Positions 29,481 to 53,451 of a stretch of DNA of 64,000 nucleotides are shown one piece after another. The position numbers and the translations under genes are program-made. The notes below the pieces were generated by a model. That model ran no database searches. It was not told where the DNA came from and worked only from the letters and a program-made list of their open reading frames with translations. Each line of letters opens with the position of its first letter. The stretch's first letter is position 1. Source of the stretch: an uncultured Bacillota bacterium (GTDB lineage Bacteria; Bacillota; Dehalobacteriia; UBA7702); contig CADBQN010000016.1 of NCBI GenBank assembly GCA_902796855.1, positions 7,038 to 71,037 of the forward strand. The letters are read 5' to 3'.

Positions 29481-29509
29481 TTGACATTAGGCGTTGAATG
29501 GCGTATAAT
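29481..29509 (+). promoter_or_regulatory. Consensus promoter TTGACA-17-TATAAT driving tRNA-Pro(GGG)
   Basis: Perfect hexamers; tRNA 5' end 11 nt downstream of the -10. Confidence 0.55.
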
Positions 29510-29519
29510 GTAATCCGTT

Positions 29520-29597
29520 CGGGGCGTAGCTCAGTTTGGCTAGAGCGCTACCTTGGGGTGGTAGAGGTCGCACGTTCAAGTCGTGTCGCTCCGACCA
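29520..29597 (+). tRNA. tRNA-Pro (anticodon GGG)
   Basis: Cloverleaf: acceptor CGGGGCG/CGCTCCG (one G-U), D-arm GCTC/GAGC, anticodon stem CTACC/GGTAG with loop TTGGGGT, T-arm GGTCG..CGTTCAAGT..CG, 3' ACCA encoded. Confidence 0.85.
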
Positions 29598-29714: not shown

Positions 29715-29743
29715 TTGACAGGCGGTTCGTTCTGTACTATAAT
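29715..29743 (+). promoter_or_regulatory. Consensus promoter TTGACA-17-TATAAT upstream of cobalamin riboswitch
   Basis: Perfect -35/-10 with 17-bp spacer. Confidence 0.5.
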
Positions 29744-29761
29744 ATGCACAAATAAAAGTTC

Positions 29762-29940
29762 ATATCTGTATCACAAGGTGCTTTGCTTAATAGGGAAGCA
29801 GGTGCGATGCCTGCACGGTCCCGCCACTGTATGGCAGAGGGAACGCCGTAACCACTCGTTCATTTTAATGGGCGGGGAAGGGGCGCTGACCGATGACGCC
29901 GAGTCAGGAGACCTGCCTTGACGATTTATGGGAATTCAGG
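29762..29940 (+). promoter_or_regulatory. Cobalamin (B12) riboswitch
   Basis: 'AATAGGGAAGCAGGTGCGATGCCTGCACGGTCCCGCCACTGTA' contains the conserved AGGGAA, GGTGC and CGGTCCCGCCACTG (B12 box at 29823-29829) elements; downstream helix 'GGGCGGGGAAGGGGCGCTGAC...GTCAGGAG'; expression-platform hairpin CACATC/GATGTG + T-rich 29950-29985 just before the RBS. Confidence 0.8.
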
Positions 29941-30000
29941 TAAGAGTTCACATCACTGAAAGATGTGGACTCTTTTATCTTTTCTAAGGAGGGATTCCCA

Positions 30001-31041
30001 TTGAACACCATTGTACTGACAGGGCGCGAAACGATCGCCGCGGAAGAGCGGCCGATGCCTTCTCCCGGTCCCGGCGAGATGGTCATTGCCGTTGTGTACT
30101 GCGGCATCTGCCGCACGGACAGAAAATGCTACCGGCAGGGGCAGCGTGATCTTCATCTGCCCCGGGTCCTCGGTCATGAATTCAGCGGTGTTATCGCCGC
30201 CGTCGGCGAAGGCGTCGCGGAGGAACGTATCGGCGAGCGCGTGACTGTCCATCCCGGGATCGCCTGCGCCGAGTGCGCTCATTGCCGGTCGGGGAACGAT
30301 CAGTGCTGCCGCGAGATGAAAATCCTCGGCTTCCATCTGGACGGCGGTTTTTCCCGTTACTGCCTGATACCGGCGGACGGCGTAAAGAACGGTATCGTGC
30401 GCCCCGTTCCGGATCATGTCCCGCTGCGGCACGCCGCGATGTGCGAGCCTCTGGGCTGCGTCGTTCATATGATTCGGCAGATGGATCCGAAAAACACGGA
30501 TTCCGCTTTGATTTTAGGCGGCGGCGTCCTCGGTTTTATGATGGCGATGCTGCTGCGTCATTACGGCGTGAGACATATCGTGATTTCCGAGCCGAATGAA
30601 AAAAAGAGAAAACTGCTGCGCCGCCGTGATTACATCGCGTGCCTGCCGGAAAAAAATCCCGAGCTCATGGAAGATATCGGCGTCAGCGGCTTTGACGCCG
30701 CCATTCCCTGCGCTCCTTATTCCGAATGTTTCGCACAGGCGGTCAACAGCCTGAAAAACGACGGTTTTTTCGGCTTTTTCAGCGGCCTGATCGATGGCGG
30801 CGCAATCACGGCAAAAGTACTGAACCAAATTCATTATAAAGAACTCTCCGTCAAAGGAGTCTACGGATGCGGAACGCGCGACACGGCGGAAGCCCTGCGG
30901 CTGATGGCGGACGGCTTTGATCTTTCCGCACTTCCCGTCACGACGGTCGGGCTGGGCGAAGCGGAAAACGTGCTGAAACAAACCGAAACGGAAAACGCCT
31001 TTTTGACGATGATTGAATATGAAGGAGGAAACGCGAAATGA
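30001..31041 (+). CDS. Zn-dependent medium-chain alcohol dehydrogenase (threonine/sorbitol dehydrogenase-like)
   Basis: TTG start 7 nt after AAGGAGGG; 'GHEFSGV' and 'CGICRTD' structural-Zn Cys cluster (CAECAHC), GxGxxG 'LGGGVLG'. Confidence 0.8.
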   Translation: MNTIVLTGRETIAAEERPMPSPGPGEMVIAVVYCGICRTDRKCYRQGQRDLHLPRVLGHEFSGVIAAVGEGVAEERIGERVTVHPGIACAECAHCRSGNDQCCREMKILGFHLDGGFSRYCLIPADGVKNGIVRPVPDHVPLRHAAMCEPLGCVVHMIRQMDPKNTDSALILGGGVLGFMMAMLLRHYGVRHIVISEPNEKKRKLLRRRDYIACLPEKNPELMEDIGVSGFDAAIPCAPYSECFAQAVNSLKNDGFFGFFSGLIDGGAITAKVLNQIHYKELSVKGVYGCGTRDTAEALRLMADGFDLSALPVTTVGLGEAENVLKQTETENAFLTMIEYEGGNAK

Positions 31042-32081
31042 TGAACATCGGACACGCCGTCAACGACCTGATTGCCGGCAAAGATCTTTCTTTCAGCGAT
31101 ACGGAAGCGATCTTCCGTCAGATTATACAGAATGAGGAGTCCGCCATGGATCAGGGCGCTTTTCTCGCCGCCATCACGGCGAAAGGGGCCGTGCCCGAAG
31201 AGATCGCGGCGATTTGGAAAGTCATTGACGAAACGGATACAAATAAAGTGACCATCAGAACGGAGCGGCCATTGGCGGAAAACAGCGGCACCGGTATGGA
31301 CGCTTTTAAGACCTTTAATATCAGTACCGCCGCGGCGGTCGCGGCATCATCCGCCGGAGCGGCGGTGGCGCGCCACGGTTCCAGAGGGATCACTTCCAAA
31401 TGCGGCACCGTTGATGTGGCGGAAGCCCTTGGCGTGCGGACGGAACTGAGCGTGGAAAAAGTAGCGAAATCCGTTGAAACCTGCGGTATCGGTCTGTTTA
31501 ACGGGATGAGCCCGCTGGTCCACCCGGCGGGCCTCGGCCGGATTTTAAGTCAGATCCACTTCGGAACCGTGCTGAACATCGCCGCGTCTTTGGCGAACCC
31601 CTGCGCTCCCGTTTACGGTCTGCGCGGCGTCAATGATCCCGCGATCATCCGCTCCACGGCGGAGATCATGCGTCAGATCGGTTACCGCCGCGTCTTCGTT
31701 CTCCACGGTTATCTCGGTGAAGATAACTTGGGGATTGACGAGGCAACCACGCTGGGCAGGACGATCTATACGGAAATCGACGCGGAGGGGAACGTGACGG
31801 AGGGAGCGTTCTATCCCGAGGATCTTGGCTTAAAACGCGGCAAAAAAGAAGAGATTGCGGCGCTGGGCGACGCCGTTAGGGAGGCGGCAAGACTCAGGGA
31901 GATCCTCAATGGGAGAGGGGGCGCGTCGGCCCGGGATATCGTTGCGCTGAACGGCGGACTGATCCTCTATCTGACGGGACTTGCCGGGACGATCCAAAAA
32001 GGAATCGACCTCGCCCGGGAACAGCTTGAAACGGGCAAAGCCGGGGAAAAACTGAACGAATGGGTCGCGGCTCAGAGCTAA
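31038..32081 (+). CDS. Glycosyltransferase family 3 / anthranilate phosphoribosyltransferase (TrpD)-like protein
   Basis: 'GTGMDAFKTFNISTAAAVAASSAGAAVARHGSRGITSKCGTVDVAEALG' matches the TrpD 'GTGGD...NISTA...A.AG..V.KHGNR' core; overlaps ADH stop (ATGA). Confidence 0.7.
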   Translation: MMNIGHAVNDLIAGKDLSFSDTEAIFRQIIQNEESAMDQGAFLAAITAKGAVPEEIAAIWKVIDETDTNKVTIRTERPLAENSGTGMDAFKTFNISTAAAVAASSAGAAVARHGSRGITSKCGTVDVAEALGVRTELSVEKVAKSVETCGIGLFNGMSPLVHPAGLGRILSQIHFGTVLNIAASLANPCAPVYGLRGVNDPAIIRSTAEIMRQIGYRRVFVLHGYLGEDNLGIDEATTLGRTIYTEIDAEGNVTEGAFYPEDLGLKRGKKEEIAALGDAVREAARLREILNGRGGASARDIVALNGGLILYLTGLAGTIQKGIDLAREQLETGKAGEKLNEWVAAQS

Positions 32082-32097: not shown

Positions 32098-32286
32098 ATG
32101 ATTTTATATGCAGTAAAAACAAACGGAAAATATCTGCGTCGGCGGCCCGACGGAACCGTTGATATCGTCACCTTGGAGAAAGCCTCGGTCTACCCGGATA
32201 TCAATAAAGCGGCGGACGCGAAAGAACTGTTTGGAGGCGGAAAGATCGTCAAACTTGTTTTTACGGAAGAGGAGGCCGAATCATAA
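32098..32286 (+). CDS. Small hypothetical protein (62 aa)
   Basis: AAAAGGGGGA RBS; followed by hairpins 32295-32310 and 32322-32352. Confidence 0.4.
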   Translation: MILYAVKTNGKYLRRRPDGTVDIVTLEKASVYPDINKAADAKELFGGGKIVKLVFTEEEAES

Positions 32287-32353
32287 AGAATCCCCGCGCC
32301 GCGGGGAATGGAAAAAGAGAGAATCCCGAGGAAACATCCTCGGGATTCTGTTT

Positions 32354-32427
32354 GGCAGGGGAGGCTGGATTCGAACCAGCGAGTCACGGACCCAGAAACC
32401 GTTGCCTTGCCGCTTGGCCACACCCCT
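32354..32427 (-). tRNA. tRNA-Gln (anticodon CTG)
   Basis: Reverse complement GGGGTGTGGCCAAGCGGCAAGGCAACGGTTTCTGGGTCCGTGACTCGCTGGTTCGAATCCAGCCTCCCCTGCCA aligns with bacterial tRNA-Gln(CUG); T-loop GGTTCGAATCC; terminator hairpin 32322-32352 downstream. Confidence 0.8.
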
Positions 32428-32446
32428 ATATATTTTTCTCTGTTCT

Positions 32447-32524
32447 GGTCGGGACGACAGGATTTGAACCTGCGGCCTCCTGATCCCAAATCAGGTGCGC
32501 TACCAAACTGCGCTACGTCCCGCT
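32447..32524 (-). tRNA. tRNA-Pro (anticodon TGG)
   Basis: Reverse complement GCGGGACGTAGCGCAGTTTGGTAGCGCACCTGATTTGGGATCAGGAGGCCGCAGGTTCAAATCCTGTCGTCCCGACCA; anticodon stem CCTGA/TCAGG, loop TTTGGGA. Confidence 0.85.
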
Positions 32525-32783
32525 GTCCCGTGAAAAATAGTATATCAAACGCCATTCCCTTTGTCAAGCGGTTTTTTTATAGAAAACGATGTTTTCAACT
32601 TTTTTGACAGAAATGTGTAATTGAATCCGGCGAAAAATTGCGTTATAATGTAATAGAAAAATTGGGTGCAAACGATGCAGTTATTGACTTTTCGTATTTT
32701 ACGATGGTCAAAACGCATCGGAACAATCTCATTTTTCGACGAAAATTTTACGTGATTTTTTCACGATTTTAGAAAAAAATTCC

Positions 32784-32803: not shown

Positions 32804-32945
32804 CAAAACAAACAGAACACAATAAATTTTACTATATAATTTTTCGTTTGAAATTTATAATAAGGATAACTGGTTATTGCGGATTGCCGCCGTCAGCGTT
32901 CAAAATATTCCGACAGCGTGTGATCTAAAGGGAGGAATTATCCGT

Positions 32946-33713
32946 ATGAAATTTGCCGTTTCCGGAAAAGGCGGCGTCGGAAAAACGACGTTATCCGCGA
33001 ATCTGGCCTTTCAGATGAGAGACAAAGGCTATCAGGTCTTTGCCATCGACGCCGATCCCGATTTGAGCCTCGGCACCGTTCTCGGTCTCAGCGAGGAAGA
33101 AGTTGAAAAACTTCAGCCCATCGTCGAGATGCGCGATCTCATCGTTGAGAGAACCCAGGGCGACGGCGCCATGTATGTACTTAATCCCGAAGTCGACGAT
33201 GTCTGGGAAGATTATTCCATCGACGTCAACGGCATTCGGTTTTTGAAAATGGGAGCCGTAAAAAAAAGAGGCTGCTATTGTCTGGAAAACACGTTTCTTA
33301 ACTCGCTGATCAACTCCATTGTCATCAAGACGAAGGAAGCCGTCCTCCTCGATATGGGGGCGGGGATCGAACATCTGACCCGCGGCACTTCCCGCGGCGT
33401 CGACTGCCTGATTATCGTCGTGGAACCTTCCGTTGTCAGCACCGACACGGCAAAGGTGACGAAAATGCTGGCCGAGGAAATCGGCATCAAAAACATTTAT
33501 TACGTGGGCAACAAGATCCGCAGCGAAAAAGAAATCGAGTTCCTGAAAACGAGAGTTCCCGCCGAGAACATTCTCGGCTGCATATCCTACAGCGACTACC
33601 TTCTCGACCTCGCCATGGGCGTGGAAGAGGAAGACAGTGAAGCGAAAGCGAAGTTCGACGGTGAAATCGCCGCCATCTTAAAGAGCATCGAGGATCGCCA
33701 CGGCGACGCCTGA
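32946..33713 (+). CDS. cooC: CODH nickel-insertion accessory ATPase CooC
   Basis: 'MKFAVSGKGGVGKTT' deviant Walker A of CooC/MinD family; GGGAGG RBS; first gene of the acs cluster. Confidence 0.85.
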   Translation: MKFAVSGKGGVGKTTLSANLAFQMRDKGYQVFAIDADPDLSLGTVLGLSEEEVEKLQPIVEMRDLIVERTQGDGAMYVLNPEVDDVWEDYSIDVNGIRFLKMGAVKKRGCYCLENTFLNSLINSIVIKTKEAVLLDMGAGIEHLTRGTSRGVDCLIIVVEPSVVSTDTAKVTKMLAEEIGIKNIYYVGNKIRSEKEIEFLKTRVPAENILGCISYSDYLLDLAMGVEEEDSEAKAKFDGEIAAILKSIEDRHGDA

Positions 33714-33798
33714 CGAGCACTTAAAACGGGGATCGCCCCGCTGAATTGAGGTTACAATGTTAAAAATTAAATAAATATATTTACCAAGGAGGTAAACC

Positions 33799-35826
33799 AT
33801 GCCTAGATTCAGAGATACGGAACTGTCATTATCACCTTCAGTACCTCGTAAGGAACGGGTAAAAGATCCTAAGAACATCATGCGTTCTGTGGATCCCGCC
33901 GCATTGGAAATGCTGGCACACTACAAAGACAGCGGCATCATCACCGGTTACGACCGTTATGTCGCTCAGCAGCCGCAGTGCGCATTCGGTTACGAAGGCG
34001 TCTGCTGCAAAATTTGCATCCAGGGTCCCTGCCGTGTGAAGGGAATGGAAGGCGCGAAGAGCAAGGGCGTTTGCGGCGCTCACGATTACACCATCGTTGC
34101 CCGCAACATCTCCCGTCTTGCCGCCGGCGGTGCTTCCGCCCACTCCGACCATGGTCGTGAAATCGTTTACACCCTGCTTGCCGCCGCCAGAGGCGAAACC
34201 GGTGACTTCAAAGTCAAAGACGAAGAAAAACTCCGCCGCGTTGCCGCCAACGTCGGTATCAGCGCCGAAGGCAAAGACGTCAACGCTCTCGCCGAAGAAG
34301 TCGCTCTTGCCGCTCTGAATGACTTCGGGAACATCACTTCCGAACCCTGCCGCTGGCTCACTTCTTATCTGACCGACGGCAGAAAGAAGAAATTCGAAGA
34401 CTGCAACATCGCCCCGACCTCCATTGACCGCGCTGTTGTCAACCTGCTCCACTCCACCCACATGGGTGTTGACGCTGATCCCGTCAACATTATCTTTACA
34501 GGTCTGAGAGCCGGCCTCGCCGACTACACCGGGATGCACATCTCCACCGATATCTCCGATATCGTTCTCGGTACTCCCGAACCCTGCGTCTCCGAAGCGA
34601 ACCTCGGTGTTTTGAAACCGAAAAAAGTTAATATCATTCTCCATGGTCACAACCCCATGCTCAGCCAGACTCTGGTTGACATCGGTCCCGAAATGGAAGA
34701 TGAAGCCAAAGCCGCCGGCGCCGAAGGCATCCAGTTCTCCGGTATCTGCTGCACCGGCAACGAAGTTCTCATGCGCTCCGGCGTTCCCATCGCCACCAAC
34801 TTCTCTTCTCAGGAACTCGCTATCATGACCGGCGTCGCCGACCTGATGATCGTTGACGTTCAGTGCATCATGCCCTCCATCCGTGCCGTTGCCGAATGCT
34901 TCAACACGAAGATCGTCACCACGATGAGCAACTCCAAGATCCCCGGTTCCGAACATATTGCTTTTGACGAAAAACACGCCGTCGAAAGCGCCAGAACCGT
35001 CATCCGCATGGCCATCGATTCCTTCAAACAGAGACAGGGCAAAGAATACTTTGTTCCCGATGTGAAGAGCAAAGTTATTGCCGGTTTCAGTGTTGAATCC
35101 ATCATGAACCTCTTCAGCAAGATTAACGCCGACGTTCCGATGCAGGCTCTCATCGATGAAATCGAAGCCGGCCGCATCAAAGGTGTCGCGTTCTTCTGCG
35201 GCTGCAACAACCTCGAATCCGTTCATGACCAGAACCATCTCGAAATCGTTAAAGGCCTGCTGAAAGAAAACGTTTTCGTTATCACTACCGGCTGCTCCGC
35301 TCAGGCGATGGCCAAAGCCGGCATTATGGATCCCGCTCATGTTGACGAACTCTGCGGTGAAAACCTTGCCGCGTTCCTCCATAAACTGGAAGAACTCAAC
35401 AAAGACACTCTGACCGACGGTCTTCCTTCCGCGTTCCATGTAGGCTCCTGCGTTGACTGCTCCCGCGCTCATGACTTCCTGACCCTGATGGCCAAGACCA
35501 TGGGTGTCGATACTCCTAAAGTTCCTTATGTCGCCACTGCCCCCGAAGCAATGAGCGAAAAAGCCATCTCCATCGGCTGCGGTTTCGTCGCTGACGGCGT
35601 TCCGACCCATGTCGGCACCATGCCTCCGATCGAAGGTTCCGCCTGCGTTTACGATATCGCCTGCAGAATCGCGTCCGACGTTTACGGCGGCTACTTCATC
35701 TTTGAAACCGATTATGCGAAAGCCACCGAAAAACTCCTCGCCGCTCTCGAATATCGTACTTGGAAGATGGGTGTCCACAAAGCTGTCGCTGAAAAATTCG
35801 ACGCTCCGTTGACTCAGAACTATTAA
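33799..35826 (+). CDS. acsA: Anaerobic carbon monoxide dehydrogenase catalytic subunit (CooS/AcsA)
   Basis: N-terminal Cys clusters 'CAFGYEGVCCKICIQGPCRV...GVCGA' (B- and D-cluster ligands), 675 aa, AAGGAGG RBS. Confidence 0.95.
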   Translation: MPRFRDTELSLSPSVPRKERVKDPKNIMRSVDPAALEMLAHYKDSGIITGYDRYVAQQPQCAFGYEGVCCKICIQGPCRVKGMEGAKSKGVCGAHDYTIVARNISRLAAGGASAHSDHGREIVYTLLAAARGETGDFKVKDEEKLRRVAANVGISAEGKDVNALAEEVALAALNDFGNITSEPCRWLTSYLTDGRKKKFEDCNIAPTSIDRAVVNLLHSTHMGVDADPVNIIFTGLRAGLADYTGMHISTDISDIVLGTPEPCVSEANLGVLKPKKVNIILHGHNPMLSQTLVDIGPEMEDEAKAAGAEGIQFSGICCTGNEVLMRSGVPIATNFSSQELAIMTGVADLMIVDVQCIMPSIRAVAECFNTKIVTTMSNSKIPGSEHIAFDEKHAVESARTVIRMAIDSFKQRQGKEYFVPDVKSKVIAGFSVESIMNLFSKINADVPMQALIDEIEAGRIKGVAFFCGCNNLESVHDQNHLEIVKGLLKENVFVITTGCSAQAMAKAGIMDPAHVDELCGENLAAFLHKLEELNKDTLTDGLPSAFHVGSCVDCSRAHDFLTLMAKTMGVDTPKVPYVATAPEAMSEKAISIGCGFVADGVPTHVGTMPPIEGSACVYDIACRIASDVYGGYFIFETDYAKATEKLLAALEYRTWKMGVHKAVAEKFDAPLTQNY

Positions 35827-35852
35827 TAAAAAGGACGAAAGGAGGATATACA

Positions 35853-38036
35853 ATGTCTTTTGAAGAAATCTATAATGGTGCTGTTGAAGAAGGTAAAGAA
35901 CCTAAGAGACTTTTTAAACAGGCTCAGGAAGGTGCCATCATCGCCACCAGTTATGCTGAAATCCTGTTGACACAGGCGATCAAAAAATATGGTGCGGAAA
36001 CAGAACTCCACTATCCCGACACTGCGTATTATCTCCCCGTTATCAGTGCTCTCAGCGGTGAAAAAGTCGAAACTCTCGGCCAGCTGCCTGCGATCCTGAA
36101 CAAAAAACGGGCTCAGATTTTTGAACCCCTCACGTTTGAAAATGCTCGTCTCGCCGGTGAATCCACTCTGTTCGCCGCCGAAATCATCGAAGCATTGAAA
36201 TACATCGAAACCGACAAACCCTACGAAGAACCGTGGCTCGGCTTCATCGGTGACCCCGTTGTCCGTAAATACGGGATCAAAATGGTTGACTGGACCATCC
36301 CCGGCGAAGCGATCATCCTCGGCCGTGCCAAAGACTCCAAATCCGCCGCGAAAATCGTCGCGAAACTGATGGGCCAGGGCATGATGCTGTTCCTCAGCGA
36401 CGAAGTCTGCGAACAGCTCCTCGAAGAAAACGTCAAACTCGGTCTCGACTACATCGCTTATCCTCTCGGCAACTTCACTCAGGTTGTTCATGCCGCCAAC
36501 TACGCGCTCCGCGCCGGTATGATGTTCGGTAACATTCCTCTCGGTGAAACCGAAAACCAGAGAGATTACCAGAGAAGAAGAATCATGGCCTTCGGTATTC
36601 ACCTCGGTGAAAGAGACGAAGTTAAGACCGCCGCTGAATTCGGCTGCATCTATCTCGGCTTCCCCATCGTTACCGACCAGGTTCTCGCTGAAGACGAAGA
36701 ACTCAACGACTGGTACGTTTCCGAACCCGATTACGATAAGATCGTCGGTCTCGCCATGGAAATCCGTGGGGTCAAACTGACCAACATCGAAATCGATATC
36801 CCCATCAACCAGGGTCCCGCCTTTGAAGGTGAAACCATCCGTAAAGGCGATATGTACTATGAAATGGGGAACAACAAGTCCGAAGCGTTCGAACTCGTCC
36901 GCATGGTTGACGCCGATCATATTGAAGACGGCAAAATCACCGTTGTCGGCCCCGAAACCAACGAATTCAACGAAGGCGACAAAGTGCCCATCGGTATCGT
37001 CGTTGACATCTATGGCCGCAAAATGCAGGAAGACTTCGAAGGTGTTCTCGAACGCCGTGTTCACTACTTCATCAACTATGGTGAAGGTCTCTGGCATGTT
37101 AACCAGCGTGATACCGTTTGGATGCGTGTCAGCAAAGACGCCATCGCCAAAGGCTTCCGCTTCCATGACTATGGCGAAATCCTCATTGCCAAATACAAAC
37201 AGGAATATTCCGCCATCGTCGACCGCGTACAGGTTACCATCTACACCGACGCGGAAGAAGTTTCCAAAATGCACAAAGTCGCGAAAGAAGTTTACACCGC
37301 TCGCGATAACCGCCTGAAAGAACTGAGAGACGAAAAAGTCGATACGTTCTACAGCTGCCTGCTCTGTCAGTCCTTCGCTCCGAACCATGTCTGCATCCTG
37401 ACTCCCGAACATGTCGGTCTCTGCGGTGCTGTTTCCTGGCTCGACGCGAAAGCCGCCTATGAAATCGACCCCAACGGCGCCAACCAGCCTGTTGAAAAGG
37501 GCGAACCCATCGACGAAGAAAAAGGCCAGTGGCAGACATGCAACGATTACTTCTATAAAGAATCGCACCAGAACCTCGAAATCGTTAACCTCTATACAAT
37601 GATGGAATTCCCCGCTTCCTCCTGCGGTTGCTTCGAAGCCATCATGGCGGTTATCTTCGAATGCAACGGTATCGCGATCGCGACCCGTAACCATACCGGC
37701 ATGACGCCCAGTGGTATGACCTTCTCCACCTTGGCCGGTTCCTGCGGCGGTGGTGTTCAGACCCCCGGCTTCCTCGGTATTGGCCGCGCTTATCTCACTT
37801 CCGGTAAATTCATCCCCGCCGACGGCGGCCGCGCCAGAATCGTCTGGATGCCTACCGAATTGAAAGAAGAAATCCGTGATGAATTTAACGCCGCTTGTGA
37901 AGCTGATGGTCTTGGGCCCAACTTCATCGACAAGATCGCTGACGAAACCGTCGGTGAATCTGCCGAAGAAATTCTTCCCTGGCTGGAAGAACAGGGTCAT
38001 CCCGCTCTCACCATGCCCGACATCATGGGTGAATAA
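35853..38036 (+). CDS. acsB: Acetyl-CoA synthase (ACS) catalytic subunit, CODH/ACS complex
   Basis: 727 aa; A-cluster motifs 'CLLCQSFAPNHVC' and 'SCGCFE'; AAAGGAGG RBS. Confidence 0.95.
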   Translation: MSFEEIYNGAVEEGKEPKRLFKQAQEGAIIATSYAEILLTQAIKKYGAETELHYPDTAYYLPVISALSGEKVETLGQLPAILNKKRAQIFEPLTFENARLAGESTLFAAEIIEALKYIETDKPYEEPWLGFIGDPVVRKYGIKMVDWTIPGEAIILGRAKDSKSAAKIVAKLMGQGMMLFLSDEVCEQLLEENVKLGLDYIAYPLGNFTQVVHAANYALRAGMMFGNIPLGETENQRDYQRRRIMAFGIHLGERDEVKTAAEFGCIYLGFPIVTDQVLAEDEELNDWYVSEPDYDKIVGLAMEIRGVKLTNIEIDIPINQGPAFEGETIRKGDMYYEMGNNKSEAFELVRMVDADHIEDGKITVVGPETNEFNEGDKVPIGIVVDIYGRKMQEDFEGVLERRVHYFINYGEGLWHVNQRDTVWMRVSKDAIAKGFRFHDYGEILIAKYKQEYSAIVDRVQVTIYTDAEEVSKMHKVAKEVYTARDNRLKELRDEKVDTFYSCLLCQSFAPNHVCILTPEHVGLCGAVSWLDAKAAYEIDPNGANQPVEKGEPIDEEKGQWQTCNDYFYKESHQNLEIVNLYTMMEFPASSCGCFEAIMAVIFECNGIAIATRNHTGMTPSGMTFSTLAGSCGGGVQTPGFLGIGRAYLTSGKFIPADGGRARIVWMPTELKEEIRDEFNAACEADGLGPNFIDKIADETVGESAEEILPWLEEQGHPALTMPDIMGE

Positions 38037-38137
38037 TCCGCGCGTAATAACAATTTAGTTCCCAGCTCAGACGGGTGCTTAACAGCACTCGTCTGAGTAA
38101 TGATAATCAACAATTTTTGAAAGGAGTTGTGTATAGA

Positions 38138-39463
38138 ATGGGATTAACAGGTTTGGCTATTTTTAAGCAGCTGCCTAAGAAGAACTGTAAAGAATGCGGT
38201 GTTGCAACTTGCATGGCATTCGCGATGGCTCTGGCGGCCGGGAAAGCGTCTTTGGATGCTTGCCCCTACGTAACGGATGAAGCGAAGGAAGCTTTGGATT
38301 CCGCCGCTGCTCCTCCGATCAAGACGGTTAAAGTTGGTGTTGGTGAAAAAGAAGTCGTTTTGGGTGATGAAACTGTTCTGTTCCGTCATGACAAGACTTT
38401 CTTCCATCCCACCGGCCTCGGCTTCCTCGTTGATGACAATGACGCCGAACTCGACGCTAAGATCGACAACATCGACGGTCTGCAGTTTGACCGCGTCGGT
38501 CAGCATTATGTTGTTGAATTCGTAACCCTCAACAACGCTTCCGGTGATGCCGCCGCTTTCGCCGCCGCCGCTGAAAAAGCCGCCGCGAAAAAAGCCGTTA
38601 TTTTGAAAGCTGATGATCCCGCTGTCCTGAGCGCCGCTCTCGACAAGATCGCCGCTGAAAAACCCCTCATTTACGCCGCTACCGCCGATAACTACGAAGC
38701 TATCACGGAAGTCGCCAAAAAATACGAAGTTCCCATGGCCGTTTACGCTGAAGGTCTCGATGCTCTCGAAGATCTCGTCAACAAAATCGTTGCTCTCGGC
38801 TACAAAGAACTCGTGATCGATCCCGGCAGCAGACAGACCGCGCAGGTTCTTGCTGACATGACTCAGATCCGTCGTCTTGCCGTTAAAAAGACCTTCCGTC
38901 CCTTTGGCTATCCCACCATCACCTTCACTTCCGAAGAAGATGCTCTTGACGAAGCCATCCAGGCCGTTGCCTATGTTGCCAAATACTGCAGCATCGTCGT
39001 GATGAAGAACGCGATCAAAGGTTATGTACTGCCGATCCTTTCCTGGAGACAGAACGTATTTACCGATCCTCAGAAACCGGTCGCCGTTGAACCGAAACTT
39101 ATGGAAATCGGTGCCGTTACTCCGGATTCTCCTTTATACATTACGACCAACTTCTCTCTCTCCTACTACAGCGTAGAAGGCGAAGTCGAAGCCAGCCGTA
39201 TTCCTTCCTACATTATCCCCATCGATACCGATGGTACTTCCGTCCTGACCTCTTGGGCTGCCGGTAAATTCGGCGGTGAACAAATCGCTGCCGCGATGAA
39301 AGCCAACGACATGGATTCCAAGCTCAACCACAAAGACGTTATCATCCCCGGTTTCGTTGCCGTTATCGCTGCGAAATTGAAAGATGAAACCGGCTGGAAC
39401 GTTATCGTCGGGCCGAAAGAAGCTTCCGGTATCTCCGGTTTTGCGAAAGCCAACTTTGCTTAA
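38138..39463 (+). CDS. acsC: Corrinoid iron-sulfur protein large subunit (CFeSP gamma)
   Basis: 'MGLTGLAIFKQLPKKNCKECGVATCMAFAMALAAGKASLDACPY' 4Fe-4S N-terminal motif; ATG after AAAGGAG preferred over upstream ORF-track start. Confidence 0.9.
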   Translation: MGLTGLAIFKQLPKKNCKECGVATCMAFAMALAAGKASLDACPYVTDEAKEALDSAAAPPIKTVKVGVGEKEVVLGDETVLFRHDKTFFHPTGLGFLVDDNDAELDAKIDNIDGLQFDRVGQHYVVEFVTLNNASGDAAAFAAAAEKAAAKKAVILKADDPAVLSAALDKIAAEKPLIYAATADNYEAITEVAKKYEVPMAVYAEGLDALEDLVNKIVALGYKELVIDPGSRQTAQVLADMTQIRRLAVKKTFRPFGYPTITFTSEEDALDEAIQAVAYVAKYCSIVVMKNAIKGYVLPILSWRQNVFTDPQKPVAVEPKLMEIGAVTPDSPLYITTNFSLSYYSVEGEVEASRIPSYIIPIDTDGTSVLTSWAAGKFGGEQIAAAMKANDMDSKLNHKDVIIPGFVAVIAAKLKDETGWNVIVGPKEASGISGFAKANFA

Positions 39464-39494
39464 TAGCCTAATTATTTAAGACAGGTGATATTAC

Positions 39495-41390
39495 GTGGAT
39501 AAACTTCAAGTAACCATTATGCCCGAAGGGCTCAGTGTTGAAGTCGAAAAAGGTTCGACTTTATTGGACGCGGCAAACGCGGCCGGCATTACGTTAAAAA
39601 GCTCCTGCGGCGGTCAGGGAACCTGCGGACGCTGCGCCGTCAAGGTCCTTGAAGGCACCGTCAACGGCGGCGACGGCAATATGTCCAAAGCCAAGCGCGC
39701 GGAGGGGTACATCCTCGCCTGCACCGCGAAGGTGGAAGACGGTCCCGTTACCGTTGAGTTCCCGGAAAGCTCCCGTCTTTCCGAACATCAGGTGCTTCTT
39801 GATGACAGTCTCGACGAAATCATCAAGGAAAGTCAGGTAGACGATTTTGAACACAGTGACGAGGCCTTTGTAAAGAAGGTTCAGGTCACGATGAGCGAAC
39901 CGAACCTGATGGAAAACGTTGATGACCTTTCGAGACTCAGCGCGGAATTAAAAGGCATTTTGGGCACGGAAAATATCACCATTTCCTACAATGCTTTAAA
40001 AACACTTCCTGCCAAAGTTCGTGAAGGGAATTGGCAAGTCACCGTGACGTGTCTCATAACGGATGAATCCGCTGAGGTGATCCGTGTGGAACCTGGTTAT
40101 GTCGATACGCCGCCTTACGGCATCGCGCTCGACATCGGCACAACGACCGTCGTTGCCGCTCTCGTTGACTTGGCCACCGGAAAGAAACTTCGTCAGGCCG
40201 GCACCTTTAACCGTCAGGCCGGGATGGGGGACGACGTGATCTCCCGTATCGTCTATACCGAAGAGGAAAAAGACGGTTTAAAGGAAATTCAGGACGTAGT
40301 CATCGAGACGATCAACGATCTCCTCGAAGAGCTCTACGCCAAAGAAAACATCGGCGCGGAAGATGTTTCCGCGATGATGGTCGCCGCCAATACGACGATG
40401 ATTCATCTCTTCCTCGGTGTTGAACCGATGTATATCAGAAGAGAACCCTATATTCCCGGTGTCTGTGACGCTCCCATTATCAAGGCGAAAGAACTCGGTC
40501 TCCATATTCATGAAGACGGTTCTGTCATCTGCTTCCCCTCGGTCGCGAGTTATGTCGGCGGCGATATCGTTTCCGGCGCGCTTCTGACAGGCATCGAAAA
40601 GCAGGATGAATTTTGGCTTTTCCTCGATATCGGTACCAATGGCGAAATGGTTCTCGGTAACAGCGATCTGCTGATGTGCTGTGCCTGTTCGGCAGGGCCT
40701 GCCTTTGAAGGCGGCGGCATTGCCTTTGGGATGAGAGCCATGGACGGCGCCATTGAAAAGATCGTGATTGACGATGAATTCAACGTCTCCTACGCGACGG
40801 TCGGGAACGCCGCCCCCGTGGGCATCTGCGGTTCCGGTCTGATCGACTGCTTATCGACGCTGAGAACGGCGGGAGTCATCAACCGCCAGGGCAAGATGCA
40901 GGACATCAGCAGCGATCGTATGCGTGAAGGCGATGAAGGCCCCGAATTCGTTCTCGTTTACGCTGACGAAACGGGCATCGGAAAAGACATTGTCATCACC
41001 GAAGCGGATATCGAAAACCTGATCCGGGCGAAAGCCGCGGTCTTTGCCGGCATTCGCATCATGCTGAGCAAAATGGAACTTCCTTTGGAAGCGGTCAGCA
41101 AGATTCTGATCGGCGGCGGTTTCGGGAATTACCTGAACCTGAACGACTCCATTCGCATCGGTCTGTTGCCGGATCTCCCCGCGGAGCTCTACAGCTTTAT
41201 CGGGAACAGCTCCCTGAAAGGGGCCTATATGGCGCTTTTGAGCAGAAGTGTCTTTAAACACAGCGTTGAATTAGGTCAGAGCATGACCTATCTGGAACTG
41301 TCTGATGGGAATGAATTCTATGATGAGTATGTACAGGCTATGTTCCTGCCTCATACCGACATGAGTCTCTTCCCGTCGTTAGAAGACTGA
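39495..41390 (+). CDS. Reductive activator of CFeSP (RACo/AcsV-like): 2Fe-2S ferredoxin N-terminus + ASKHA ATPase
   Basis: GTG start; 'CGGQGTCGRCAV' plant-type ferredoxin cysteines; 631 aa. Confidence 0.8.
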   Translation: MDKLQVTIMPEGLSVEVEKGSTLLDAANAAGITLKSSCGGQGTCGRCAVKVLEGTVNGGDGNMSKAKRAEGYILACTAKVEDGPVTVEFPESSRLSEHQVLLDDSLDEIIKESQVDDFEHSDEAFVKKVQVTMSEPNLMENVDDLSRLSAELKGILGTENITISYNALKTLPAKVREGNWQVTVTCLITDESAEVIRVEPGYVDTPPYGIALDIGTTTVVAALVDLATGKKLRQAGTFNRQAGMGDDVISRIVYTEEEKDGLKEIQDVVIETINDLLEELYAKENIGAEDVSAMMVAANTTMIHLFLGVEPMYIRREPYIPGVCDAPIIKAKELGLHIHEDGSVICFPSVASYVGGDIVSGALLTGIEKQDEFWLFLDIGTNGEMVLGNSDLLMCCACSAGPAFEGGGIAFGMRAMDGAIEKIVIDDEFNVSYATVGNAAPVGICGSGLIDCLSTLRTAGVINRQGKMQDISSDRMREGDEGPEFVLVYADETGIGKDIVITEADIENLIRAKAAVFAGIRIMLSKMELPLEAVSKILIGGGFGNYLNLNDSIRIGLLPDLPAELYSFIGNSSLKGAYMALLSRSVFKHSVELGQSMTYLELSDGNEFYDEYVQAMFLPHTDMSLFPSLED

Positions 41391-41418
41391 CATCGGTTAT
41401 ATGAGAGGATGATATTCT

Positions 41419-42183
41419 ATGGCAAAAATGGCAAAACACATCGCCCTCGTTGGTAAAGGCGGCGTTGGCAAAACGACATTGACGACGATGATCTGCCGGT
41501 ACCTCGAAGAAAACGATAAGGGGATTGTTTTGGCGGTCGATGCCGATCCCAACGCCAACCTCAACGAAGCGCTCGGAATGGAATTTTCTTCCTGTATTTC
41601 AGATGTTATTGAGGACACGAAACGTCCTCACGCGGTTCCTGACGGCATGTCAAAGGAACGATACGTTGAATACAGATTGCAGGACGCGCTGATCGAAGGC
41701 GATAAGAACCTCGATATGCTGATTATGGGCGGTCCTCAGGGACCGGGCTGCTACTGCTACGCGAACGACCTTTTGAGAGGCTATATTGAGCGCCTTGAAA
41801 AGAATTACGATTATCTCGTCATGGACAGCGAGGCCGGTATGGAGCATATCAGCCGCCGCACCGTTCAGGATGTGGATGTCATGTTCATCGTCAGCGACGC
41901 GTCGGCTCGCGGGGTCCGCACGATTACACGGATCTACGATCTTGTGAAAAACCTGAAAACAAAGGTTAAATCTGTTTACGCGATCGTTACAAAAGCATCG
42001 GAAGAAACCATAAACGACTTGCAGGAGGAACTTGAAAAAACAGGTGTCGAATTCGCCGGCTTCATTCCTTTTGACCCTCAGGTCTTTGAGTATGACGCGA
42101 AGGGCAAACCCCTTTACGAACTGCCGGAAGACGCTCCCGTTGTAAAAGCTTCCTACGCAATTTTTGATAAGATTAAATTATAA
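41419..42183 (+). CDS. acsF: CooC-type nickel-insertion ATPase (AcsF) for ACS
   Basis: 'HIALVGKGGVGKTT' Walker A; 254 aa; second CooC-family gene in the cluster. Confidence 0.85.
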   Translation: MAKMAKHIALVGKGGVGKTTLTTMICRYLEENDKGIVLAVDADPNANLNEALGMEFSSCISDVIEDTKRPHAVPDGMSKERYVEYRLQDALIEGDKNLDMLIMGGPQGPGCYCYANDLLRGYIERLEKNYDYLVMDSEAGMEHISRRTVQDVDVMFIVSDASARGVRTITRIYDLVKNLKTKVKSVYAIVTKASEETINDLQEELEKTGVEFAGFIPFDPQVFEYDAKGKPLYELPEDAPVVKASYAIFDKIKL

Positions 42184-42209
42184 GCCGATTATTTGAAAGG
42201 AGAACAAAA

Positions 42210-43175
42210 ATGGCTGTACAGATTTTAAAAGAAAAGTATGCCCAACCCGTCCGTGCTTTTAAGCTCGGCAACACCGCGGAAGAAGGCGGCACTCGCGGCT
42301 ACTCCCTGACGGTTGGTGGCGAAGGCACGCTTCCTTTCCAACATTATGAAGGTGAAAACCCCAACAAACCCATCGTCGCGATGGAAGTTAACTCCAATAA
42401 ACAACTCGACTGGAAAGATACCCTTGTTGACGCTATCGGCAAAGACGTTGTCGCCGATCCCGCCAAATGGGCCCAGTTCAACAAAGAAGCCGGCGCTGAC
42501 GCCATCTATCTGAAACTGGACTCCGCCGATCCCGATAAGGGTGGCGATTCCCCCGAAGCCTGCGCTCAGATCGCCAAAGACGTTCTGGCCGCTGTGGATC
42601 TTCCTCTCATCGTTGCCGGTTCCGGTAACGCCACCGTTGACGAAGAAGTTCTGATGGCTGTTGCCGAAGCGACCAAAGGCGAAGGTCTGCTCCTCGGTTT
42701 TGCTGAAACCGAACATTACAAAGCCCTCGTCGCCGCCTGCCTGGGCAACGGTCATGGCATCATCGCCAGATCTCCCCTCGACATCAACATCTGCAAACAG
42801 CTCAACATTCTCATCGGCGAAATGAACATGCCGATGGAAAGAATCGTCATTGACCCCCTCGTTTCCTCCGTTGGTTATGGTATTGAATATGCCTACTCCA
42901 TCATGGAACGCGGCCGCATCGGCGCTCTCACCGGTGACAAAACCCTCGCTATGCCTCTCATCGCTACCGTCGGTTTCGAAGCCTGGAGACAGAAAGAAGC
43001 CTGGGGCACCACCGAAGAATACGCCGAATGGGGCGAACAGAGCCAGCGTGGTCCCGCTTGGGAAGCTACCACTGCCGCCGCTTGCCTCCAGGGTGGTGTT
43101 GACATTCTCTGCATGAGACATCCTGACGCTGTTAAAACCATCAAACATCAGATTGATGCTTTAATGACGAAATAA
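42210..43175 (+). CDS. acsD: Corrinoid iron-sulfur protein small subunit (CFeSP delta)
   Basis: 321 aa TIM-barrel-like 'MAVQILKEKYAQPVRAFKLG', position and size as in Moorella AcsD. Confidence 0.85.
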   Translation: MAVQILKEKYAQPVRAFKLGNTAEEGGTRGYSLTVGGEGTLPFQHYEGENPNKPIVAMEVNSNKQLDWKDTLVDAIGKDVVADPAKWAQFNKEAGADAIYLKLDSADPDKGGDSPEACAQIAKDVLAAVDLPLIVAGSGNATVDEEVLMAVAEATKGEGLLLGFAETEHYKALVAACLGNGHGIIARSPLDINICKQLNILIGEMNMPMERIVIDPLVSSVGYGIEYAYSIMERGRIGALTGDKTLAMPLIATVGFEAWRQKEAWGTTEEYAEWGEQSQRGPAWEATTAAACLQGGVDILCMRHPDAVKTIKHQIDALMTK

Positions 43176-43237
43176 AGAATCAACTACTTTTGTCCTTTTG
43201 GATTCTTTATTAAATAATGTGATAGGAGGAACTAGTA

Positions 43238-44053
43238 ATGAAAATTATTGGTGAAAGATGTAACGGGATGTTCCTCGACATCCGCGAAGGCATCCAGAAA
43301 AGAGATCCCCAGCCCCTGATCGACTGGGCGAAAAAACAGGAAGAAATGGGTGCTGACTGGATCGACCTCAATGCCGGTCCCGCCTGCGCTAACGAAGCCG
43401 AACGTGTTGAAGCCATGAAATGGATGGTTGAAGTCGTTCAGCCCGCTACCAAACTTCCTCTGGCTCTCGACTCCACGAACTATGACGCCATCGAAGAAGG
43501 CCTGAAACTCATCGACGAAGCTCATATTCATGACACTCTGATCAACTCCGTTCCCTGCGAACAGGAAAAAATGGACAGAGTTTTCGCGATGGCCGCCGAA
43601 TTTGGCTGCAAAGTCGTTTGCCTCACCATGGACGCCAAAGGTGTTCCTCAGGAAGCTGAAAGCCGTGTCGCTATGGCGATGGAACTCGTTGCCAACGCTG
43701 ATATGGCCGGTGTTCCCAGTGACGACCTTTACATTGACCCCCTGATTCTTCCCTGCAATGTCGCTCAGTTCCATTGCCCGGAAGTTCTGAAAGCTTTGGC
43801 TCAGATCAAGACTCTTGCGGATCCCGCTCCCAACACCGTTCTCGGTCTCTCCAACGTTTCTCAGAAATCGCCTGACCGTTCCTTGCTCAACAGAACTTAC
43901 CTCGCCATGGGCGCTTCCTGCGGCCTTGACGCTGTCATCGCTGACCCCTGCGACGACGCTCTGATGGAAGTCGCTGCTTCCACCGAAGTTCTCCTGAACA
44001 AGAAGATCTATGCTGATTCCTACGTAAAAGTTTATCGCGAAAAGAATCTCTAA
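43238..44053 (+). CDS. acsE: Methyltetrahydrofolate:corrinoid/iron-sulfur protein methyltransferase
   Basis: Pterin-binding (DHPS-like) 'MKIIGERCNG ... GADWIDLNAGPA'; 271 aa. Confidence 0.9.
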   Translation: MKIIGERCNGMFLDIREGIQKRDPQPLIDWAKKQEEMGADWIDLNAGPACANEAERVEAMKWMVEVVQPATKLPLALDSTNYDAIEEGLKLIDEAHIHDTLINSVPCEQEKMDRVFAMAAEFGCKVVCLTMDAKGVPQEAESRVAMAMELVANADMAGVPSDDLYIDPLILPCNVAQFHCPEVLKALAQIKTLADPAPNTVLGLSNVSQKSPDRSLLNRTYLAMGASCGLDAVIADPCDDALMEVAASTEVLLNKKIYADSYVKVYREKNL

Positions 44054-45210: not shown

Positions 45211-45278
45211 TCAGACCACTTTATCTATTTTAACTTATAATTCTTGATTCGTCAATAATAATTTTGTGAGGTATGACT

Positions 45279-45917
45279 ATGGAAATTTATGATCCCAAGA
45301 GCGCGACGAGTTTCTATAACATGGACGAGACTGTCCGCGTCGCCGTTGAGCGGTTTCAAAACAGTGATCTCGATCAAATGATTGAAAACTGCGGTTTTAC
45401 AAAATGTGACGACGGTTTTGACGTCCATTTTATTCAGCGCGATCTGCATGTATCGTATCCCGAAGGGAACGTGATCGATAAATCGACCGGCGCAAAAGTT
45501 GATGACACCTGCAAAGTGCTCGTTCTTCATCACGCGGCTTATTCCAAAGGCGGCGGCCTCGTCGATAACATGATCTCGTATAAGGAACTCCCCAGCGGTG
45601 AAATATATATCAAACCCTTTACCAATCGCTGTGTCAAAGCGCTTGTCGGGATCTTCGCGTCAAATCTTGACGCTTTAAAGGGCGCTGTGGATCAGACCAT
45701 ACACCGTGAGGAACGTCATGGTGACTACAGCGTTACCATCCAGGTGATGCCGAAAGTTCCCATCACGCTCATTGTATATGAGGAAGACGACGAATTTCCC
45801 GCCGACGGCAACATTCTGTTCAACGGCAACGCCGCCAACCACCTGCATACTGAAGATTATACTCAGATATCGGCGTATCTCGTTTCTTCCCTGAAACGGA
45901 TCGCATTCCCCAAATGA
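45279..45917 (+). CDS. DUF3786-like protein (paralog 2)
   Basis: Homologous to the 5305-5913 product over its full length (shared 'YP.G', 'LP.G', 'E.DDEFPA..N.LF' blocks); GAGG RBS 7 nt before second ATG. Confidence 0.55.
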   Translation: MEIYDPKSATSFYNMDETVRVAVERFQNSDLDQMIENCGFTKCDDGFDVHFIQRDLHVSYPEGNVIDKSTGAKVDDTCKVLVLHHAAYSKGGGLVDNMISYKELPSGEIYIKPFTNRCVKALVGIFASNLDALKGAVDQTIHREERHGDYSVTIQVMPKVPITLIVYEEDDEFPADGNILFNGNAANHLHTEDYTQISAYLVSSLKRIAFPK

Positions 45918-51972: not shown

Positions 51973-53451
51973 TTGGAAAAGACAGACGTATTGGAGAACA
52001 TCACTGAACGGACGGGCGGCGATATTTATCTTGGTGTTGTCGGCCCCGTACGCACGGGAAAATCGACGTTTATCCGCAGATTCATGGAATTGCTCGTCCT
52101 TCCCAATATCGAGGAATTCCATGACCGTGAAGTCGCCCGGGACGAATTGCCCCAAAGCGGCACCGGGCGCACCGTGATGACGACGGAACCGAAATTCATT
52201 CCGGCCAACGCGGTGGAGATCAGTGTAAAAGAGGGCATCGATATGAGGGTGCGGATGGTGGACTGCGTCGGCTACGTTGTCCCCGGCGCCCTCGGTTTTG
52301 ATGAGGATGAGGCGCCGAGAATGGTGCGCTCCCCCTGGAGCGATGAGGAAATCTCCTTTGAGGAAGCGGCGGAAACGGGAACGCGAAAAGTCATCGCGGA
52401 TCATTCCACCATCGGACTGCTCGTCACCACCGACGGTTCCGTCACTGAGATCGAACGGGAAAACTATATCGAGGCGGAACGCCGTGTTGTCGGGGAACTG
52501 AAAGAACTGGAAAAACCTTTTGTCATCATTTTGAACTCCGCTGTCCCCGACAGTGAGGAAACACAAGCGCTGGCCGAACGAATGAGAGAGGAGTATGACG
52601 TTTCCGTCATAGCCTTAGACGCCATGAACATGGCGGGCGACGACGTTATTTCCGTTTTGAACGAGGCTCTTTATGAATTCCCCGTCACGGAAATCGACGT
52701 CCACCTTCCCGATTGGCTCAGCGAAACGGAGGAAGATCACTGGCTGAGAAAGAAAATGGTCAGCGCCGTTGACAGCGCGGCGGAAAGCATCGTCCGGATC
52801 AGAGATCTTGACCGCGCGCTGGATCAGCTCGATGAAATGGAAGAGACGGAAAGCGCGTCCCTGCTCCAGATGGATCTCAGCACCGGTATATCCCGTCTGG
52901 CCGTGAAGATCCGCGACAGTCTTTTTCGCGGGGTGCTCGGGGAATACGCCGGTGAGGAAATCTGCGGCGATGAGACCGTAATGCGGCTGATGCGAAAGTT
53001 CTCCGCTTCGGATCGGGAGTGGAGCAAAATGAAAGACGCCATGAACGACGTCCGCGACAGCGGTTACGGCATCGTCAATCCGCAGATCGACGAGATGTAC
53101 CTGGAAGAACCGGAACTGATTAAAGAGGGGGGACGCTTTGGCGTCAAGCTGAAAGCCTCTGCGCCGAGCTACCACGTGATCCGGGCGAATATTTCCACGG
53201 AAATCACGCCTTTGGTCGGGACGGAAAAACAGTGCGAGGAATTGGTGCGTTATATTTTAGATGAGTTTGAGGACGATCCCCGAAAGATGTGGGAAACCAA
53301 TATCTTCGGCAAATCCCTGAACACCCTCGTACAGGAAGGAATCCAAAGCAAGCTCTGCACCATGCCGGACACGGCCAGAGAAAAACTACAGGTCACTCTG
53401 GAGCGTCTCGTCAATGACGGCGGCGGCGGGATCATCTGCATCATTCTGTGA
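51973..53451 (+). CDS. spoIVA: Stage IV sporulation protein A (spore coat morphogenetic ATPase)
   Basis: TTG start after GGAGGGA; 'ITERTGGDIYLGVVGPVRTGKSTFI' near-identical to B. subtilis SpoIVA Walker A region. Confidence 0.9.
   Translation: MEKTDVLENITERTGGDIYLGVVGPVRTGKSTFIRRFMELLVLPNIEEFHDREVARDELPQSGTGRTVMTTEPKFIPANAVEISVKEGIDMRVRMVDCVGYVVPGALGFDEDEAPRMVRSPWSDEEISFEEAAETGTRKVIADHSTIGLLVTTDGSVTEIERENYIEAERRVVGELKELEKPFVIILNSAVPDSEETQALAERMREEYDVSVIALDAMNMAGDDVISVLNEALYEFPVTEIDVHLPDWLSETEEDHWLRKKMVSAVDSAAESIVRIRDLDRALDQLDEMEETESASLLQMDLSTGISRLAVKIRDSLFRGVLGEYAGEEICGDETVMRLMRKFSASDREWSKMKDAMNDVRDSGYGIVNPQIDEMYLEEPELIKEGGRFGVKLKASAPSYHVIRANISTEITPLVGTEKQCEELVRYILDEFEDDPRKMWETNIFGKSLNTLVQEGIQSKLCTMPDTAREKLQVTLERLVNDGGGGIICIIL

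Follow-up and report, generated by a model that had tools for sequence, protein, structure and literature searches.

A cobalamin riboswitch-controlled operon encoding a zinc dehydrogenase and a TrpD-fold transferase is a candidate accessory module of cobamide biosynthesis

Why a cobalamin (B12) riboswitch should control two enzymes that belong to no described family of cobamide genes is the question raised by a locus in an uncultured Bacillota bacterium of the lineage UBA7702. The locus lies in a 64,000-nucleotide stretch of contig CADBQN010000016.1, which was analysed as a whole and is referred to here as the window; unless a related locus is named, all coordinates are positions within it. 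The riboswitch precedes genes for a Zn/NAD medium-chain dehydrogenase/reductase (MDR), termed ADH, and a paralogue of the TrpD-fold phosphoribosyltransferases, termed GT3. Both enzymes are members of known superfamilies (Zn-MDR and TrpD fold, respectively), yet neither they nor the third product of the operon, a 62-residue protein, can be placed in a described cob, cbi, bza, ars or cbl family; for the two enzymes this agrees with the original prediction, made from the sequence alone, that these are not standard cob or cbi genes. The data presented below lead us to propose, with a probability of roughly 0.55, that the module is a conserved accessory of the nucleotide-loop and lower-ligand branch of cobamide synthesis that acts together with CobT.

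An Rfam scan of the whole window returned a single riboswitch, RF00174 (Cobalamin), at 29759-29934 on the forward strand. The element scored 94.2 bits (E 3.7e-22) against a gathering score of 31.5 bits and covers the full model (positions 1-189), bearing out its initial identification as a B12 riboswitch. It is of the long form, with a peripheral P6 region as well as the B12 box, and the AGGGAA, GGTGC and CGGTCCCGCCACTG (B12 box) motifs are all read within the aptamer. It could be aligned to 14 orthologous leaders and is an ordinary RF00174 riboswitch. Upstream is a sigma-70-type promoter, TTGACA-17-TATAAT (29715-29743, forward strand), which had been described as perfect and matches the consensus at 12 of 12 positions. 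Downstream is an expression platform consisting of an intrinsic terminator with a 13-bp stem, a 7-nt loop and a T-run (29942-29985, forward strand). The hairpin and T-run had been recognized previously, but the stem begins at 29942 and not at 29950; the hairpin extends to 29974 and is followed by TTTATCTTTTC. The platform (29925-29990) folds with a minimum free energy (MFE) of -22.4 kcal/mol, and no antiterminator pairing was resolved within it by MFE or constrained folding. An AAGGAGG ribosome-binding site (RBS) is located directly after the terminator, 7 nt upstream of a TTG start codon at 30001, completing a leader that is laid out as promoter, aptamer, expression platform, RBS and regulated open reading frame (ORF). 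By analogy with other members of the family the riboswitch is predicted to be a transcriptional OFF switch. When corrinoid is plentiful the aptamer would fold and the downstream hairpin would end the transcript, while scarcity of corrinoid would result in readthrough into the operon.

The operon comprises three genes on the forward strand, of which two, ADH (30001-31041, starting with TTG) and GT3 (31038-32081), had been described along with their coupling through an ATGA overlap of the ADH stop and the GT3 start, a description that is accurate as far as it goes; the third, which had been missed, encodes a conserved 62-residue protein and has its own RBS (32098-32286). ADH matches the Pfam families ADH_N (8.9e-26) and ADH_zinc_N (2.4e-11), and the public gene call yields an identical 346-residue product. 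GT3 contains the Pfam domains Glycos_trans_3N (PF02885) and Glycos_transf_3 (PF00591), consistent with its earlier assignment to the TrpD family.

The pairing of the two enzymes, and their position behind a cobalamin riboswitch, are widely conserved. Eighty genome loci were fetched and, with three fetched earlier, gave a set of 83 (L001-L083; the labels L001-L089 designate related genome loci fetched for comparison). The fetched loci derive from Eubacteriaceae, Peptococcaceae, Desulfosporosinus, Syntrophomonadaceae, Fuchsiella, Dehalococcoidales, Desulfobacterales, Desulfobulbales, Syntrophales, Kiritimatiellia, Victivallales, Nitrospirota, Bacteroidota, Methanomassiliicoccales and Methanotrichaceae, which are mostly anaerobic lineages. 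An ADH homologue adjoins GT3 in 77 of the 83 loci, in either gene order and in both bacteria and archaea, while 68 of the 78 bacterial loci carry RF00174 immediately before the module (64 of 73 within L001-L083, together with L084, L085, L088 and L089). Conservation of the neighbourhood, which the original prediction had singled out as a point to be checked, is thus evident in both respects. A nhmmer profile constructed from the orthologous leaders detected the riboswitch in 55 loci, and Rfam placed RF00174 directly 5' of the first gene both in the Desulfosporosinus loci and in all 14 of a further set of bacterial loci. Rfam recovered eight of 14 nhmmer negatives, and L073, L084, L085, L088 and L089 were also positive by Rfam. 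As nine loci missed by nhmmer were Rfam-positive, the negatives returned by the nhmmer profile are unreliable. No riboswitch was detected in any of the ten archaeal loci.

The genes that surround the module, identified by clustering all ORFs of the loci, link it to cobamide synthesis. In 12 loci ADH is fused to a DBI_PRT (CobT) domain, in the order riboswitch-GT3-small ORF-ADH::CobT, and in L068 the CobT domain of the fusion scored 437 bits against the TIGR03160 cut-off of 319. When the window ADH was searched with HMMER against 1.84 billion representatives, CobT proved to be the sole foreign fusion partner among the 150 best matches (the fusions are P0264, P0302, P0305 and P0312), the two other long proteins among these matches being tandem ADH duplications. 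A separate CobT gene is located within 6 kb in nine further loci, and CbiB in six; overall, CobT, CbiB, CobQ, putative CobD, BtuR or BzaAB are neighbours of the module in more than 20 loci. The gene order in L079, for example, is BtuR-GT3-small ORF-ADH::CobT-CobT-CobQ-putative CobD, while the opposite strand of L026 and L041 encodes CbiB together with a protein in which CobQ is fused to a domain of the aminotransferase fold, read as CobD. In Fuchsiella alkaliacetigena a single riboswitch is followed by ADH, GT3 and the small ORF, two tandem genes of the ThiC radical-SAM family, CobT and the S-component of an energy-coupling factor (ECF) transporter; the two ThiC-family genes, read as BzaA-BzaB, have BzaB as their best NCBIfam match, although both score below its cut-off. 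The three window proteins themselves displayed no homology to PF02277 or TIGR03160. These data show that the link between the module and cobamides is well supported, and the module very probably acts in the biosynthesis or salvage of these cofactors. The original proposal of a B12-repressed module that builds cobamides, as opposed to threonine or tryptophan housekeeping, receives strong support from the comparative evidence on riboswitches, CobT fusions and bza/cob neighbourhoods.

Several of these loci display additional features. In L079 (7230-10338) ADH::CobT is followed directly by a second, free-standing CobT, an arrangement that recalls CobT homologues occurring in pairs, for example ArsAB. 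The fusion in L026 (7994-10609, reverse strand) is an 870-residue protein comprising the class I/II aminotransferase-fold domain read as CobD and the cobyric acid synthase CobQ. A gene for a PF01902 protein (diphthamide-synthase-like PP-loop ATPase) is present in L026 (10564-11316, reverse strand), L041 (10564-11253, reverse strand) and L058 (2715-3428, forward strand), recurring beside CbiB and the putative CobD::CobQ fusion; it could fulfil another function in the cobamide pathway, such as supply of a linker precursor. In L040 (8329-8495) and L074 (8302-8489) a second cobalamin riboswitch is located immediately after ADH-GT3-CobT and precedes a TonB-dependent, BtuB-like receptor. In L033 a thiamine pyrophosphate (TPP) riboswitch (5343-5437, reverse strand) is arranged back to back with the cobalamin riboswitch of the module (5567-5797, forward strand) in one divergent intergenic region.

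What GT3 does within such a module depends on how closely it resembles TrpD, the anthranilate phosphoribosyltransferase (EC 2.4.2.18). Its closest solved structures are TrpD enzymes (9ucw, E 6e-51), its AlphaFold2 (AF2) model (pLDDT 92.3) has top Foldseek matches that are all TrpD (TM 0.85-0.90), and it shares about 30% identity with TrpD. GT3 scored 245 bits against the TIGR01245 trpD cut-off of 199, which explains the name 'TrpD' in public sources. Among 8,000 scored candidates more than 3,000 relatives were found with E <= 1e-20, a number that possibly includes canonical TrpD; the best 120 are 48-98% identical to GT3, and those that carry a name are annotated as anthranilate phosphoribosyltransferase. 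The score and the name could be taken to indicate that GT3 is a true TrpD and ADH a generic dehydrogenase, in housekeeping or a B12-independent bypass, with B12 control unrelated to cobamide synthesis. Indeed, isozymes that do not depend on B12, MetE and NrdD among them, are known targets of B12 riboswitches (review PMC8620254).

The active site of GT3 and its genomic context contradict this view, which we regard as very improbable. The GT3 signature emerged when 75 family members were aligned to two TrpD sequences, and again in a second alignment of 46 members. The motifs GTGGD, KHGN, GxRTxFN and LGPLxNP of TrpD are replaced in the GT3 family with GTGMD, RHG[AS] (RHG[AS]R), FG[ST]xLN (catalytic-site Arg to Gly) and AaSLAnP (GP to aS), respectively, LMGV becomes vRGV, which introduces a new invariant residue, Arg196, and there is a two-residue insertion (GIGLFNGMS) that TrpD does not possess. 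By contrast, the NIST and DE motifs, which contact phosphoribosyl pyrophosphate (PRPP) and Mg in TrpD, are retained (KTFNIST and GmDE). The Asn and Arg of the anthranilate site and the GTGGD glycine are replaced in the window GT3 and in at least 90% of the 75 family members, and the Asn and Arg positions are those altered in the deposited Mycobacterium tuberculosis N138A and R193L structures. These substitutions point to a PRPP-type transferase in which the acceptor pocket has been rebuilt and whose acceptor is not anthranilate. With respect to context, no trp gene is present in the window or adjacent to the module in the approximately 88 loci examined, whereas canonical trpD of Bacillota resides in T-box-controlled trp operons (PMC12452182), and the CobT fusions and bza/cob neighbourhoods point to cobamide synthesis. 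GT3 resembles TrpD in its two-domain fold and in its PRPP/Mg motifs (GTGxD, NIST and DE), but differs in its absence from trp operons, its MDR dehydrogenase partner and its control by a B12 riboswitch. As the anthranilate-binding Asn and Arg have been lost, the 'TrpD' annotation of GT3 is probably wrong, and the use of this name across databases is likely a systematic misannotation that could distort predictions of tryptophan prototrophy for the genomes that carry the module.

ADH had been assigned to the threonine dehydrogenase (Tdh) or sorbitol dehydrogenase type of MDR. It is indeed a Zn/NAD MDR of the polyol dehydrogenase/Tdh clade, as judged from its sequence, but is not a Tdh orthologue. 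Comparison with both the PDB (about 1e-38) and NCBIfam places RspB, Tdh and polyol dehydrogenases at much the same distance from the protein, which is more than 200 bits below every NCBIfam equivalog cut-off; against the Tdh models NF003808 and TIGR00692 it scored 156.8 bits (cut-off 380) and 148.1 bits (cut-off 458), respectively. The catalytic Cys/His-Glu/Glu residues, the structural Cys4 site, the GxGxxG motif and the NAD-type acidic residue are retained in 68 ADH members, although it should be noted that the metal sites of Zn-MDRs are common to the whole superfamily and do not discriminate Tdh. The motifs GhRdL and FSGl...HY.E...GaYGc are conserved specifically in the ADH family, and the Arg of GhRdL could bind a phosphate. 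ADH thus shares with Tdh- and polyol-type MDRs (RspB, sorbitol dehydrogenase, galactitol-1-phosphate 5-dehydrogenase and IolM) the fold, a catalytic Zn with a Glu ligand, the structural Cys4 Zn site and an NAD-type Rossmann motif, but differs from them in its genomic partners, which are GT3 and CobT rather than kbl or genes of sugar catabolism.

These observations bear on the proposal that ADH supplies the aminopropanol linker of cobamides by oxidizing L-threonine to 2-amino-3-ketobutyrate, which would be decarboxylated to aminoacetone and then reduced to (R)-1-amino-2-propanol, and so fills the L-threonine kinase step, which lacks an assigned enzyme in many anaerobes. At least one anaerobe does have this gap, as Dehalobacter contains no pduX homologue, a substitute kinase has been proposed, and the L-threonine kinase step is unassigned in this organism (PMC4285132). 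The proposal is also consistent with the presence of Tdh models and structures among the best matches to ADH, and with the proximity of the module to CbiB and putative CobD in L026, L041 and L083. The Tdh scores of 148-157 bits, however, are far below the cut-offs of 380-458, and RspB and polyol dehydrogenases match ADH to a similar extent. The operon contains neither kbl nor any other gene of the aminotransferase class, and a linker pathway offers no job for the paired PRPP-type transferase. Furthermore, the only fusion partner of ADH is CobT, and not CbiB or CobD, while the cob clusters of L079, L026 and L041 encode the class I/II aminotransferase-fold protein read as CobD (threonine-phosphate decarboxylase), which would imply that the linker is made by the ordinary route. 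Linker supply by a threonine dehydrogenase is therefore unlikely.

The second proposal in the original prediction was that GT3 activates a lower-ligand base in place of CobT. GT3 and CobT (EC 2.4.2.21) are functional neighbours, both being enzymes that transfer, or in the case of GT3 are predicted to transfer, phosphoribosyl groups to N-heterocycles, but their folds are unrelated (CobT is a DBI_PRT protein, PF02277, which GT3 does not match). CobT converts beta-nicotinate mononucleotide (NaMN) to alpha-ribotides and cobamides need the alpha form, whereas a TrpD-type enzyme is expected to generate beta-ribotides from alpha-PRPP. In a CobT-independent route, GT3 would make the beta-ribotide of the base and ADH, through bound NAD, would transiently oxidize C2' and epimerize C1', giving the alpha-ribotide and so leading to alpha-ribazole phosphate with no use of NaMN. 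This scheme has the merit of assigning a role to both enzymes. It is also consistent with a GT3 pocket that has lost the carboxylate-binding Arg and gained Met/Leu, which would suit a neutral benzimidazole, and with the organization of the module as a self-contained operon in most genomes. We know of no precedent for a C1' epimerization of this type, however, and the new invariant Arg196 suggests that the acceptor may still be anionic. In addition, GT3 co-occurs and is co-transcribed with CobT, rather than replacing it, and ADH is fused to or co-transcribed with CobT that scores above the equivalog cut-off, which would be odd if the two represented alternative routes. Replacement of CobT by the module is accordingly an unlikely interpretation.

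A role for the module alongside CobT, in the nucleotide-loop and lower-ligand branch, accommodates these data more readily. GT3, with PRPP and Mg, would form a beta-N-phosphoribosyl bond or, operating in reverse with pyrophosphate (PPi), cleave one, the acceptor being an aromatic or heterocyclic compound other than anthranilate. The Zn/NAD dehydrogenase would oxidize or reduce that ribotide or its precursor, and CobT would receive the product, which could serve either as phosphoribosyl donor (NaMN or an analogue) or as base, with the 62-residue protein functioning as an accessory subunit. The identity of the substrates, the sequence of the steps and which CobT substrate is supplied are all inferred from the genomic associations and the motifs. 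Supply of the donor would fit the occurrence of the module in archaea and Dehalococcoidales, and within a bza operon; supply of the base would fit the rebuilt acceptor pocket of GT3 and the overlap of the module's taxa with reported producers of 5-methylbenzimidazolyl-cobamide.

More specifically, the module may carry out a previously undescribed lower-ligand step, either a PRPP-driven feed to, or bypass of, the NaMN requirement of CobT, or a route to the base 5-methylbenzimidazole or benzimidazole; we consider this possible but tentative, and clearly less probable than the general accessory function. To our knowledge the origin of the 5-methylbenzimidazole, benzimidazole and purine lower ligands has not been described, nor has a pathway to the 5-methylbenzimidazole or benzimidazole base, and we are aware of no explanation for how NaMN, for which CobT has a high Km, is supplied. 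The strongholds of the module are the Desulfobacterales, Desulfobulbales and Methanotrichaceae; these coincide with organisms that reportedly make 5-methylbenzimidazolyl-cobamide, according to work in 1988 by Kohler and by Kraeutler and colleagues. Both 5-methylbenzimidazole and benzimidazole are natural lower ligands (PMC8123684).

A number of observations weigh against the proposed accessory role. No CobT, CbiB or Bza gene is present within the 64-kb window, and the module is isolated, with no cob neighbours, both here and in most of the loci. Ten of the 78 bacterial loci have no detected riboswitch, although two of these have little or no 5' flank, and about two thirds of the loci lack the 62-residue protein. 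With respect to mechanism, donor supply does not account for the dehydrogenase, no scheme that we have written provides it with a compelling one, and the flux through recycling of NaMN would be trivial. Finally, targeted full-text literature searches found no biochemical or genetic data on any member of the module.

The third gene starts 17 bases past the GT3 stop codon, behind a AAGGGGGA RBS, and a public contig of 98% identity has this small ORF annotated as well. In 27 related loci the gene that directly follows GT3 encodes a homologue of 60-69 residues, and these homologues share the motif LYALK..G.Y.R...V.L.KASVFP...L.I.E. A search with the single sequence returned one match, while a profile search recovered 582 relatives, all of which are named 'hypothetical'. 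The AF2 model of the protein (pLDDT 93.2) displays a beta-beta-beta-alpha-beta arrangement for which no match was found in the PDB (best E 0.8), and the sequence matched no Pfam or NCBIfam family.

In its regulation the module resembles the cob/cbi/btu and bza (BzaAB/BzaF-CobT-BzaCDE) operons that are controlled by B12 riboswitches, sharing with them RF00174, the OFF logic, a terminator platform and the pathway neighbourhood, but in most genomes it forms an operon of its own, with two or three genes. What is new is an enzymatic module inside a familiar B12-riboswitch regulon. Targeted full-text searches that combined cobalamin riboswitch or cobamide with either enzyme found no description of it, and a study of corrinoid starvation in Dehalobacter does not mention the ADH-GT3 pair (PMC4285132). 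The structure of a cobamide, above all its lower ligand, decides which microbes can use which B12 analogue and so shapes communities in the gut, the rumen, sediments and dechlorinating consortia. The module, which is carried by acetogens, sulfate reducers, syntrophs, Dehalococcoidales and two lineages of methanogens, is a concrete candidate for one gap in the cobamide pathway.

In a small number of loci the module adjoins genes for carboxylate transporters of the TRAP (DctPQM/TAtT) or Tct type, namely L013 (2653-7118, where they are followed by a phenylacetate-CoA-ligase-like gene), L054 and L068 (in both cases upstream) and L086 (3463-6432). These neighbours may hint at an imported acidic precursor; naming a substrate from them was rejected, as only four loci are involved.

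The surroundings of the operon in the window point to an acetogenic host. A complete Wood-Ljungdahl carbonyl-branch cluster for carbon monoxide dehydrogenase/acetyl-CoA synthase (CODH/ACS) and the corrinoid iron-sulfur protein (CFeSP) extends from 32877 to 44053, about 0.6-0.8 kb 3' of the operon, in the order CooC-AcsA-AcsB-AcsC-RACo-AcsF (a second CooC-type ATPase)-AcsD-AcsE, which substantiates the acetogen context suggested at the outset, and SpoIVA (51973-53451) marks the organism as a spore-forming Bacillota acetogen. The operon is bracketed by tRNA genes, at 29481-29597 upstream and 32353-32567 downstream. The upstream tRNA-Pro(GGG) has its own perfect TTGACA-17-TATAAT promoter, and the downstream genes are the convergent tRNA-Gln(CTG) and tRNA-Pro(TGG), separated from the operon by two GC-rich hairpins (32291-32349) that are likely bidirectional terminators. 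Horizontal transfer was considered and dropped despite the flanking tRNAs, as the GC content of the operon (0.55-0.58) is the same as that of its neighbours. Similarly, the upstream hom and aspartokinase genes were rejected as a functional link, being conserved in the nearest relative only. Beyond the CODH/ACS cluster, a DUF3786 gene (45273-45917) is located after tRNA-Arg(CCG) and before a gene for S-adenosylhomocysteine hydrolase.

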